Positions 197-3,968 of a stretch of DNA of 64,000 nt are shown one piece after another. Below the pieces are notes generated by a model. That model was not told the DNA's origin, ran no database searches, and worked only from the letters and a program-made list of their open reading frames with translations. How positions within the stretch are numbered: position 1 is the first letter of the stretch; each line of letters opens with the position of its first letter. A program made the position numbers and the translations under genes. The stretch lies in sequence record LC494302.1; one strand, 5' to 3'. This DNA comes from Escherichia phage SP27.

Positions 197-319
197 ATGA
201 TTGCTATGTTAGAAGAAGATTGGGGTGTTTCCGAGCAAGGCACTGATGAATATGAATACCCAGAATATAAGCCCAAAGGCTTATGGGAACGTTTGCGTGA
301 TTGGTTGATGGGGGAATAA
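197..319 (+). CDS. Small hypothetical protein (41 aa), not in the ORF track
   Basis: ATG 197 preceded by GGAGG; MIAMLEEDWGVSEQGTDEYEYPEYKPKGLWERLRDWLMGE; stop lies 1 nt before the next gene's ATG. Confidence 0.35.
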   Translation: MIAMLEEDWGVSEQGTDEYEYPEYKPKGLWERLRDWLMGE

Positions 320-320
320 T

Positions 321-1433
321 ATGAAAAAGTATTTGGTTGGTGGCTACGTCCGTGACCGTTTAATGGGTCTTCGTGCAAAAGACAAAGATTATGTCATTGT
401 CGGAGCAACTGAATCTGATATTAAGTACTTGCAAAGTATTGGCTATAAGCAAGTAGGTAAGGATTTCCCTGTATATCTAAGTCCAGAAGGTAATGAACAC
501 GCATTAGCCCGTACTGAGCGTAAAACTGGTACTGGATATGGTGGCTTTGAAGTGGATACAAAAGGCGTAACACTCGAACAAGATTTGTATCGCCGTGACC
601 TAACAATAAATGCAATTTCGTATGATCCAGTACTACAAATTCACATTGATCCATACGGTGGTAAAGCTGATATCAAGAACAAGGTACTACGTCATGTTTC
701 TGACCATTTTAAAGAAGATCCATTACGTGTGTTACGTCTTGCTCGATTTGCTACTCGTTATTCAGACTTTACTATCCATGAAAGCACTGAGGAACTAGCT
801 ATTGGAATGGTCAATAGTGGTGAGCTAAATCATCTTGTTCCTGACCGTGTTTTTGTGGAATTCGAAAAAGCATTTTCCGAAGAAAAGCCTGCAAAGTTCC
901 TTAAGACGCTAAGTAAATTTGGTTATTACGAAAAGGTGTTTAATACATCTTTGACCAAAAAGAATTTAGACCTTATTGATTATATTGCAGAGAACTGTAC
1001 GGATGTATATAAACCATATTTTCTGTGGTCTATTCTTCTTGAAAATGAAGAAGTAAATAATGATTCAGTACTTAACGGTGCTATTAAAGTTCCAGTTAAG
1101 TATGTTAAATTTAGTAATTATATCAAACGTTTCCGTGATGATATCAAAACATTCCGTAAAAAGACCCCTATTGAAATGGGTAATATTTTATTGGATATGA
1201 ATATTAAAAATAACGGAGGTGAAGAATTCCTTTATGAAGTTTTGGAATACTTCATTTTGCGAAAAGAAATTGATTTAGAACTTGAAGATCTAATTATTAA
1301 AGTTTATGATCGTTATACTGATGTTGAATTGCCTGATATTCAGCAAATGGTCAAAGATGGTGAACTTGAAACGTCAGAAATTCGTGATTTTGTTTGTGAA
1401 CTTCGTTACGAAGCAATCAAACAAATGTTCTAA
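321..1433 (+). CDS. cca: tRNA nucleotidyltransferase (CCA-adding enzyme) head/neck/body; no HD phosphohydrolase domain
   Basis: GGYVRD start motif, ARTERKTGTGYGGF, RRDLTINAI, EDPLRVLRLARFATRY; near-collinear with the N-terminal half of E. coli Cca as recalled; RBS before ATG 321. Confidence 0.85.
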   Translation: MKKYLVGGYVRDRLMGLRAKDKDYVIVGATESDIKYLQSIGYKQVGKDFPVYLSPEGNEHALARTERKTGTGYGGFEVDTKGVTLEQDLYRRDLTINAISYDPVLQIHIDPYGGKADIKNKVLRHVSDHFKEDPLRVLRLARFATRYSDFTIHESTEELAIGMVNSGELNHLVPDRVFVEFEKAFSEEKPAKFLKTLSKFGYYEKVFNTSLTKKNLDLIDYIAENCTDVYKPYFLWSILLENEEVNNDSVLNGAIKVPVKYVKFSNYIKRFRDDIKTFRKKTPIEMGNILLDMNIKNNGGEEFLYEVLEYFILRKEIDLELEDLIIKVYDRYTDVELPDIQQMVKDGELETSEIRDFVCELRYEAIKQMF

Positions 1434-1510: not shown

Positions 1511-1943
1511 ATGCGTTATAGTTGTGGTATAATATTTTATCGTGATGGTCAGATACTTATCGGACATACAACACGGACAGAATCATTGGGATTTACCTAA
1601 AGGGAAAGCTGAGGGTAATGAAACTTTCAAAGAAGCTGCTGTACGTGAATGTTTCGAAGAGACAGGATACGAAATCGATGAAGATGATCTTCTGTTTCTT
1701 GGTGATGTATCCTATAGAAAGGGAAAAAGGTTAGTACTTTTCTTTTATACTGCCAAAGACAAACCAATACCAGATGAATTAGTTTGTAAAAGTACTTACA
1801 CTAATAGATATGGTAAGAGTCATCCAGAATTGGATAAGTTCATGTACATTGATGTACGAGAATGTCAAAAGTATTTGACTGAACGAATGTGTAACAGTAT
1901 TATTAAAGCTGTTAAAGCTTTTCAAAGAAATAGAAGGAAATAA
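1511..1943 (+). CDS. NUDIX hydrolase interrupted by an apparent +1 frameshift at about 1583-1590 (pseudogene, programmed frameshift or sequencing indel)
   Basis: ATG 1511 with AAGAGA RBS encodes MRYSCGIIFYRDGQILIGHTTRTES (Nudix first strand) and stops at 1598-1600; the Nudix box GKAEGNETFKEAAVRECFEETGY is in the 1542-1943 frame. Confidence 0.6.
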
Positions 1944-2773: not shown

Positions 2774-3250
2774 ATGATTCATGAACACCGAGGTAATCTG
2801 TTTGAATTATTCAGTACTGTAACAGATGATAAAACAGCAATACATATAATTGCTCATGGTTGTAACGCACAGGGTAAAATGGGTTCAGGTTTTGCAAAAG
2901 AGCTAAGAAATCGTTACCCAATGGCATATGATGATTATAAAGCATATGAAAAGGAAATGGGATTTCTTAGAATTGGACAAATTGCATATTCAGCAATTAA
3001 CGATAATTTGATTATTGCAAACTGTATTACCCAAAAAATGTACGGTAATGACGGTGCTAAATATGTCAGTTATGATGCAATCGACGATGTGTTCAAACAT
3101 CTAAATTATTTTTGTAAAGTTGATCGAGATGTTCATGTACACTTCCCGAAAATTGGAGCCGATTTGGGCGGCGGTAACTGGAACGTTATCAAAGAAATCA
3201 TTGATCACCGACTGGTCAATGCAGAAAAACACTTATACATTCTAAAATAA
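2774..3250 (+). CDS. Macrodomain protein of the DarG/TARG1 (OARD1) type; ADP-ribose hydrolase-like
   Basis: IAHGCNAQGKMGSGFAKEL and HFPKIGADLGGGNWNVI match the HCISxDxxMGAGIA / PRIGCGLD pattern of TARG1/DarG macrodomains, from memory. Confidence 0.65.
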   Translation: MIHEHRGNLFELFSTVTDDKTAIHIIAHGCNAQGKMGSGFAKELRNRYPMAYDDYKAYEKEMGFLRIGQIAYSAINDNLIIANCITQKMYGNDGAKYVSYDAIDDVFKHLNYFCKVDRDVHVHFPKIGADLGGGNWNVIKEIIDHRLVNAEKHLYILK

Positions 3251-3590: not shown

Positions 3591-3968
3591 ATGGCTGCTA
3601 ATGACGTTAAAGTAAAAACTATCCAAGCTATCGTAGTACTGAAAGATTCTACACCATCCCCTAAAGAATTAGTAATGGCTGGGATGACTATGTTACATCA
3701 ATACAACCCTGAATCACCTAACTATGTTCAAGAATACGAAGCTAAGAAGTTTAAAGAACATTGGCAGTCATGGATTAAAGATAATGAAATGGAGCAGGTA
3801 GTTTATGCTGCTGATGACATTTTCGAACTGGAACAAATTGAATATCTAGCTGGTCAGCAATCAGTACCATTGAGCATTTTCGGTAATGGTGAAGAAGTTC
3901 TGGTATTGGGACCATTCACTGCTGATGATATCATTCACTTACTGAGTAATTGTAAGAAAATTGAATAA
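3591..3968 (+). CDS. Hypothetical protein; weak resemblance to the PTH2 peptidyl-tRNA hydrolase fold
   Basis: ATG 3591 after AGAGGTA; C-terminal EEVLVLGPFTADDIIHLL resembles the PTH2 TVLGIGPGPADLID segment, by eye only. Confidence 0.5.
   Translation: MAANDVKVKTIQAIVVLKDSTPSPKELVMAGMTMLHQYNPESPNYVQEYEAKKFKEHWQSWIKDNEMEQVVYAADDIFELEQIEYLAGQQSVPLSIFGNGEEVLVLGPFTADDIIHLLSNCKKIE

Follow-up and report, generated by a model that had tools for sequence, protein, structure and literature searches.

The window analysed here is a stretch of 64,000 nucleotides (nt) from Escherichia phage SP27 (LC494302.1), and the gene of interest is a cca-like gene at positions 321..1433 of its plus strand, which encodes a 370-amino-acid (aa) protein with the features of a class II tRNA nucleotidyltransferase without an HD motif. 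The gene begins with ATG and, according to the list of open reading frames (ORFs), ends with a stop codon at 1431-1433. A Shine-Dalgarno-like GGGGA, read directly from the sequence, lies 5 nt ahead of the start codon on the same strand (311..315), and because an upstream ORF of 40 aa has its stop codon at 317-319, cca appears to be either tightly packed or translationally coupled. The first 6 kb of the window are 99.5% identical to Escherichia phages vB_EcoM_phAPEC6 and CRJP21 and 97-99% identical to PBECO4, 121Q, and other Asteriusvirus jumbo coliphages, whose genomes are about 350 kb long. Base composition follows the phage, with a G+C content of 34.9% for the gene and 35.0% for the window versus 56.3% for E. 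coli cca; G+C at third codon positions is 24.6% in the phage gene against 57.5% in the E. coli gene, which bears out the phage-like, AT-rich codon usage noted in a first-pass annotation of this DNA.

All catalytic motifs of a Cca-type class II enzyme are intact, in agreement with the CCA-adding enzyme that the annotation had proposed. The head, or pol-beta nucleotidyltransferase domain, spans residues 4-124 (330..692, plus strand like all parts of the gene; Pfam PF01743 PolyA_pol, 3.1e-18) and opens with motif A (GGYVRDRLMGLRAKDKD, G7-D23, 339..389), identified from the sequence and from a family alignment of 26 full-length relatives that are 38-81% identical. Here the GGxVRD...DxD pattern reads G7 G8 x V R11 D12 ... 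D21 x D23 in the phage protein; G7, G8, R11, D12, and D23 are invariant, D21 is conserved in at least 90% of relatives, and the two catalytic carboxylates, D21 and D23, are thus both present. Motif B (RRD, R91 R92 D93, 591..599) occupies invariant columns and aligns with the RRD of E. coli Cca, and motif C (DPYGGKAD, D110-D117, 648..671) is invariant at D110, P111, G114, and D117. Motif D (EDPLR, E132-R136, 714..728), the amino-acid template that selects CTP or ATP, is invariant as well, the longer string EDPLRVLR being identical in E. coli Cca, and it is followed by motif E (R139, R142, F143), again in invariant columns. Motifs A to E are kept across relatives down to 38% identity. Beyond them lie the neck domain, at residues 149-207 (765..941; Pfam PF12627 PolyA_pol_RNAbd, 4.3e-08), and a C-terminal helical body and tail at residues 208-370 (942..1430), which stands where E. 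coli Cca has its HD-containing region.

Comparison with E. coli K-12 Cca (b3056) divides the protein in two. Head and neck are collinear with the E. coli enzyme and 52% identical to it by BLASTP (residues 1-207 of both proteins, E 3e-65), with motifs A to E identical, whereas beyond residue 207 BLASTP finds no significant similarity to E. coli Cca, and the phage protein is 42 residues shorter overall. The NCBIfam model of E. coli-type Cca, NF008137, likewise matches only residues 1-207, against profile positions 1-207 of 409 (4.9e-81), with a score of 272.6 bits that lies under the curated 451-bit cutoff for full-length membership. NCBIfam Cca models as a group score 196-273 bits, versus 95 for PcnB and 60.4 for the A-adding enzyme, and both models of PcnB (poly(A) polymerase I) fall well short of their own cutoffs (TIGR01942, 95.4 bits with a cutoff of 305.65; NF008634, 49.7 bits with a cutoff of 702). 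The phage family phrog_2244, 'tRNA nucleotidyltransferase', matches over the full length (3.8e-116). Between motifs A and B the protein is collinear with E. coli Cca, the sole reference aligned there, apart from two 1-residue gaps and one 3-residue gap near residue 37, and the string ALARTERK in this stretch is invariant in the family alignment. This region must be of full length for the addition of A76, and according to work by Neuenfeldt in 2008 it is reportedly shortened in CC-adding enzymes.

An AlphaFold2 model built on the 26-relative alignment has a mean pLDDT (predicted local distance difference test) of 92.5, and with Foldseek almost the entire model can be superposed on solved class II enzymes (TMq 0.72 to Thermotoga maritima 3H38), the helical neck, body, and tail with which this class holds the acceptor/T arm of tRNA all being present. 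The solved enzymes from T. maritima (3H37), B. stearothermophilus (1MIV), and A. aeolicus (4WBY) are only 21-27% identical to the phage protein, and their body and tail are unrelated to it at the sequence level. Taken together, motifs and model indicate a complete class II tRNA nucleotidyltransferase that has its head, neck, body, and tail, and its gene is the only one for a class II nucleotidyltransferase found in a near-identical whole genome.

The first-pass annotation described the protein as nearly collinear with the polymerase half of E. coli Cca and as ending before the HD domain. The collinearity of residues 1-207 and the lack of an HD motif both stand, but the protein is not truncated: a further 163 residues follow, so that all four domains are represented. 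These residues form a conserved helical body and tail with the family motifs NNGGEEFLY and KVYDRY, and they evolve much as the rest of the protein does. Measured against phage BF17 (86.5% aa identity), the ratio of nonsynonymous to synonymous substitution rates (dN/dS) comes to 0.087 over residues 1-207 and to 0.105 over residues 208-370, and values of about 0.1 in both halves imply strong purifying selection on each.

What is absent is the H...HD...D metal-binding segment of E. coli Cca. After residue 171 the phage protein has no histidines and E. coli Cca has eight, and Pfam HD (PF01966), which matches the E. coli protein at residues 229-328 (2.4e-14), finds nothing in the phage protein. Nor is the domain encoded next door, a possibility raised in the first-pass annotation: Pfam detects no HD domain in nine downstream ORFs or in ten upstream ORFs, the latter taken from PBECO4 because the window begins only 320 nt before the gene, and a profile of the Cca-type HD region has no match in 1,940 stop-to-stop segments of the near-identical whole genome.

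Profile comparisons point to how this state arose. Among 80 bacterial relatives from GTDB, most are 400-430 aa long and match the E. coli C-terminal region strongly, while about 14 of the 80 are only 360-405 aa long and match it weakly. The C-termini of these short bacterial proteins nevertheless align with the HD-type region in profile-profile comparison (99.95% probability, E 1.6e-38), with the segment around HDLGK...HHGH deleted. The C-terminal profile of the phage family aligns in turn with the short bacterial type (hhalign, 84% probability, E 7.6e-6, 146 columns) and with the HD type (72%, E 3.4e-5, 115 columns), the latter alignment beginning just past the HD motif, where RLRVPN of E. 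coli corresponds to IKVPVK of the phage. A bridging sequence, P0079, matches both the phage C-terminal profile (8.7e-27) and the HD-type profile (4.4e-7). By these alignments the HD segment is missing from within the protein, the phage C-terminal region is evidently a remote homolog of that of proteobacterial Cca, and the HD catalytic site has been lost through internal deletion or degeneration and not through truncation; a truncation before the HD domain is rejected by the structural and profile alignments alike.

The same architecture, at a similar length, is found in short HD-less Ccas of gamma- and betaproteobacteria (about 355-390 aa; for example NF009811, NF009812, and loci L013, L018, L024, L026, L036, L041, and L061), and it is with these that the phage C-terminus aligns best, although the phage family forms a separate clade whose C-terminal sequence is very diverged. 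Since the short bacterial forms are scattered over the tree, HD loss has happened several times. Viral relatives show the same tendency: among the best 80 from viral contigs, 18 have a RaK2-like C-terminus, only 10 match the HD type strongly and contain an HD[LIVMF]G motif, and the remainder are HD-less and mostly about 355-390 aa long; in all, about 70 of the 80 have no HD motif. Among phage Ccas of this type, lacking HD is the norm. In an uncultured bacterium (L095:6001-7532, P0082), a gene for a 366-aa HD-less Cca stands after TatD and directly before a gene for a HAD_SAK_2 ('Swiss army knife' HAD) phosphatase, an arrangement which hints that a separate protein may supply phosphatase activity where the HD motif is lost.

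The source of the gene is less specific than the close similarity to an enterobacterial Cca, stressed at first, would have it. Over the N-terminal region, the phage protein shares 52.7% of its residues with E. coli, 55.7% with Klebsiella, 58.1% with a Lysobacterales genome, and 55.7% with a Methylophilaceae genome; identity lies at 52-58% for every gamma- or betaproteobacterial Cca sampled and reaches 61% with uncultured HD-less proteins of 366 aa. In a neighbor-joining tree of 204 N-terminal columns with 200 bootstraps, the Enterobacterales were monophyletic without the phage in 200 of 200 replicates, a clade of phage plus Enterobacterales appeared in none, and the phage family was monophyletic in 150. 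An enterobacterial origin is not supported by the identity values and bootstraps. Of the old, host-derived acquisition proposed at first, the age stands: the gene is, by sequence, of gamma/betaproteobacterial type and its acquisition is old. The HD site may have been lost before or after capture by a phage.

Candidate substrates of such an enzyme are the phage's own tRNAs. No tRNA gene was found in the window, and the survey covered OR844650.1, the complete genome of a phage that is 99.2% identical, where ARAGORN predicts seven tRNA genes in one cluster on the minus strand (L004:31069-34895); Rfam confirms six of the seven, the exception being Gly(UCC). In the genes for Met(CAU), Arg(UCU), and Ser(UGA), CCA is encoded after the discriminator. 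Those for Thr(UGU), Asn(GUU), Ser(ACU), and Gly(UCC) have no encoded CCA and read discriminator-C-A-A/T instead, a sequence that implies a need for CCA completion once the 3' end has been trimmed. The share of CCA-less genes is therefore 4 of 7 as predicted, or 3 of the 6 confirmed. Besides the unconfirmed Gly(UCC), oddities of the cluster are a tRNA-Ser with anticodon ACU and a 90-nt tRNA-Met with a long extra arm. A blastn search with the cluster returned mostly single tRNA matches in T4-like phages and one usable RaK2-like locus, from a RaK2-like Klebsiella phage in which two of six tRNA genes are without CCA.

All tRNA genes of E. coli encode CCA (PMC10435456), so the host needs its Cca only for repair. 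For the homolog in phage RaK2, maturation of the phage's own tRNAs was proposed earlier (PMC3622015). With four of seven phage tRNA genes carrying no encoded CCA, the case that the present gene serves to mature phage tRNAs is no weaker than that for the repair of nuclease damage, which the first-pass annotation had in mind.

We consider it probable that the gene product is a complete and active CCA-adding enzyme whose most direct substrates are the phage's own tRNAs; the fold, the motifs, the missing HD motif, the purifying selection, and the CCA-less tRNA genes are observed, and from them we infer the activity of the enzyme, its substrate range, and its benefit to the phage. Such an enzyme would add or restore C74-C75-A76 on tRNAs with a free 3'-OH, from CTP and ATP and without a template, as E. 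coli Cca does. The Thr(UGU), Asn(GUU), Ser(ACU), and Gly(UCC) tRNAs of the phage would first be trimmed at their 3' ends and then receive CCA from the phage enzyme, which would in addition restore tRNA 3' ends that exonucleases had shortened during infection. With the HD segment lost, the 2',3'-cyclic phosphodiesterase and phosphatase side activities of the E. coli Cca type are predicted to be absent, and with the HD site missing the enzyme would act on 3'-OH ends only. The best reading is that the enzyme both completes CCA-less phage tRNAs and maintains tRNA 3' ends in general, and carrying Cca may itself relax selection for an encoded CCA.

Several observations weigh against this interpretation. 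The tRNA genes considered were read in a 99.2% identical relative and not in the window, and our literature search found no biochemical study of any member of the phage family. Conservation of the CCA-less state is lacking as well: every one of the five tRNAs in the homologous region of Asteriusvirus EJP2, Ser(ACU) included, encodes CCA, and in two viral contigs (L127 and L128, 184 and 93 kb) an array of 20 tRNA genes with CCA encoded in 19 stands beside an HD-less cca, which indicates that a phage Cca is kept even where maturation needs none. Maturation thus cannot be the sole reason that the gene is kept. Across Cca-encoding viral contigs, the number of nearby tRNAs with encoded CCA ranges from 19 of 20 to 1 of 12, and a general rule that phages with Cca have CCA-less tRNAs is rejected by this range together with EJP2. 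Host Cca could, moreover, do the same job: Deutscher, Foulds, and McClain are said to have found in 1974 that T4 relies on host Cca for some of its tRNAs. Finally, C-terminal regions reportedly influence specificity in this enzyme family (work of Betat in 2004 and Tretbar in 2011), so that full rather than partial CCA addition is not proven by sequence. Apart from this question, two further viral contigs (L156 and L162, 345 and 389 kb) carry, within 10 kb of a cca homolog, a tRNA with anticodon CUA, predicted by ARAGORN, called Pyl, and equivalent to an amber suppressor; stop-codon recoding may occur in those phages.

The neighborhood of cca bears on the other roles that the enzyme might have. 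Directly downstream on the plus strand lie genes for a Nudix hydrolase (1542..1943; Pfam NUDIX, 1.1e-12) and, after it, a glutaredoxin (1945-2193), followed by a DarG-antitoxin-like macro-domain protein (2774..3250, plus strand; NCBIfam NF048014, 3.9e-08; Pfam Macro, 0.0092; phrog_335) that might counteract ADP-ribosylation of the DarT type or have ADP-ribose-phosphate products as its substrates. Further along, a plus-strand ORF of 125 aa, annotated as hypothetical (phrog_14786; 3591..3968), was proposed at first to be PTH2-like and tRNA-related, and the fold, at least, is supported by fold searches and family-wide Pfam matches. Its own match to Pfam PTH2 (PF01981) is insignificant (E 0.18, 12.5 bits against a cutoff of 23) and a plain phmmer search against the PDB finds no Pth2, but 9 of 11 relatives match PF01981 (best 5.6e-7), and an AlphaFold2 model (pLDDT 76) has Pth2 structures as all of its top 12 PDB matches in Foldseek (E down to 2.7e-6, TMq 0.56-0.73). 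The SIFGN of this protein aligns with SIIRD of Methanocaldococcus jannaschii Pth2 (MJ0051), whose Asp we take to be catalytic in Pth2. The corresponding residue is N99 (FGNGE), invariant in the family of the 125-aa protein, and an Asn at this position leaves the activity of the protein uncertain. A Pth2 is also noted in the RaK2 paper (PMC3622015).

Upstream genes were read from PBECO4, outside the window. About 3 kb ahead of cca lies a gene for a 137-aa protein, gp041 (L001:2869-3279), annotated as hypothetical, which is a minimal 2H phosphoesterase (Pfam 2H-SAK, 6.9e-06, just under the cutoff), has both HxS/T motifs (HVS and HIT), and is 55% identical to its GAP32 homolog; from its sequence it is a candidate for cyclic phosphodiesterase activity in trans. 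A homolog of HPF/RaiA-type ribosome hibernation factors, gp039 (L001:4391-4723; Pfam Ribosomal_S30AE, 2.3e-09), and a lysozyme are encoded upstream of cca as well. The order Cca, Nudix, glutaredoxin, macro is kept in GAP32 and in a metagenome contig, even though their Cca is only 51-60% identical, and in GAP32 and the metagenomic relative the region additionally holds an RNA ligase and a DUF2828 protein. When the RNA ligase, DUF2828, HPF, and YqeY proteins of these relatives were searched against an Asteriusvirus genome by tblastn, none gave a match at E<1e-3, although Pfam does find HPF in PBECO4. This gene content fits an RNA-end and translation maintenance region, though conserved gene order among related phages is weak evidence of a functional link.

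These neighbors raise the possibility, which we regard as appreciable and yet clearly the lesser one, that the enzyme serves mainly in counter-defense, as in the view of the first-pass annotation, rebuilding tRNA 3' ends after host nucleases or toxins have cut or altered them, in concert with neighboring RNA-end-healing genes. Relatives with a 51-60% identical Cca keep a whole block of RNA ligase, DUF2828, 2H phosphoesterase, lysozyme, HPF, Cca, Nudix, glutaredoxin, macro, an ORF of about 120-125 aa, and neck; that short ORF sits at the position of the PTH2-like gene, and the GAP32 copy matches the Asteriusvirus one by tblastn. The upstream 2H phosphoesterase with its paired HxS/T motifs and the PTH2-fold neighbor agree with such a role, as do the all-CCA tRNAs of some Cca-encoding phages, which fit maintenance or repair. 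Toxins that attack tRNA 3' ends do exist, HEPN and MenT among them (PMC10435456), and RNA repair is the heading under which the phage CCA-adding enzyme appears in Iyer et al. (2021). Yet an enzyme without HD could not use the 2',3'-cyclic phosphate or 3'-phosphate ends left by metal-independent RNases, and no CCA-adding enzyme can rebuild bases upstream of position 74. By tblastn, Asteriusvirus has no homolog of the relatives' RNA ligase or DUF2828 protein, and related phages keep their genes in order for a variety of reasons.

A broader version of the same idea, rather speculative in our view, is that in RaK2-like jumbo phages the HD-less Cca belongs to a conserved 'tRNA-end and translation maintenance' island of 2H phosphoesterase, HPF, Nudix, macro, and PTH2-fold proteins, with RNA ligase in some genera, in which the 2H enzyme would supply in trans the chemistry of the E. 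coli Cca HD domain, and whose members would jointly oppose host toxins, both those that damage the 3' ends of tRNAs and those that block aminoacyl-tRNAs. If so, the HD-less state of about 70 of 80 viral Ccas would reflect a general phage strategy of splitting two activities.

It is improbable that the enzyme instead has a narrower or different specificity, adding A only or CC only, or polyadenylating RNAs of the host or the phage. Its C-terminal region is indeed strongly unlike that of E. coli Cca, and the discriminator is followed by C in all four CCA-less phage tRNA genes. However, a tRNA that ends in N73-C still needs both C75 and A76, and the genome has a single class II nucleotidyltransferase gene; the NCBIfam score for Cca far exceeds those for PcnB and the A-adding enzyme, and the region between motifs A and B is nearly as long as in E. 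coli Cca. We give almost no credence to a decaying or noncatalytic remnant of a captured bacterial cca, for which the lost HD motif and a C-terminal half without plain BLAST similarity to E. coli Cca might speak, given the dN/dS of about 0.1 in both halves, catalytic motifs that are all invariant down to 38% identity, the confident full-length model, and retention of the gene across several jumbo-phage genera.

The gene is real but ordinary: it carries an annotation already, and its phage enzyme family is a known one. To that family belong the tRNA nucleotidyltransferases of RaK2-like jumbo phages (RaK2 gp031, PBECO4 gp033, GAP32, 121Q gp539), which share 48-92% identity over the full length, lie in the same neighborhood, and show no difference of substance, and homologs were discussed for RaK2 in 2013 (PMC3622015) and for jumbo phages in 2021 (Iyer et al.). 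The analysis shows further that most phage Ccas of this type have no HD motif and that a near-identical phage carries tRNA genes needing post-transcriptional CCA addition; if the enzyme is needed for the maturation of phage tRNAs or for resistance to toxins of the tRNA 3' end, it would be one more case of phages securing their own translation supply, an idea already in the literature. The significance of the present analysis lies mainly in annotation hygiene, several phage records being over-annotated. In RefSeq, the PBECO4 ortholog gp033 (YP_009150347.1) is called a tRNA nucleotidyltransferase, other records use CCA-adding enzyme, and several (121Q gp539, slurp01, Sharanji, phAPEC6) use 'multifunctional CCA protein' or 'phosphatase'; because the phage protein has no HD site, the last two labels, copied from E. 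coli Cca, do not fit it.

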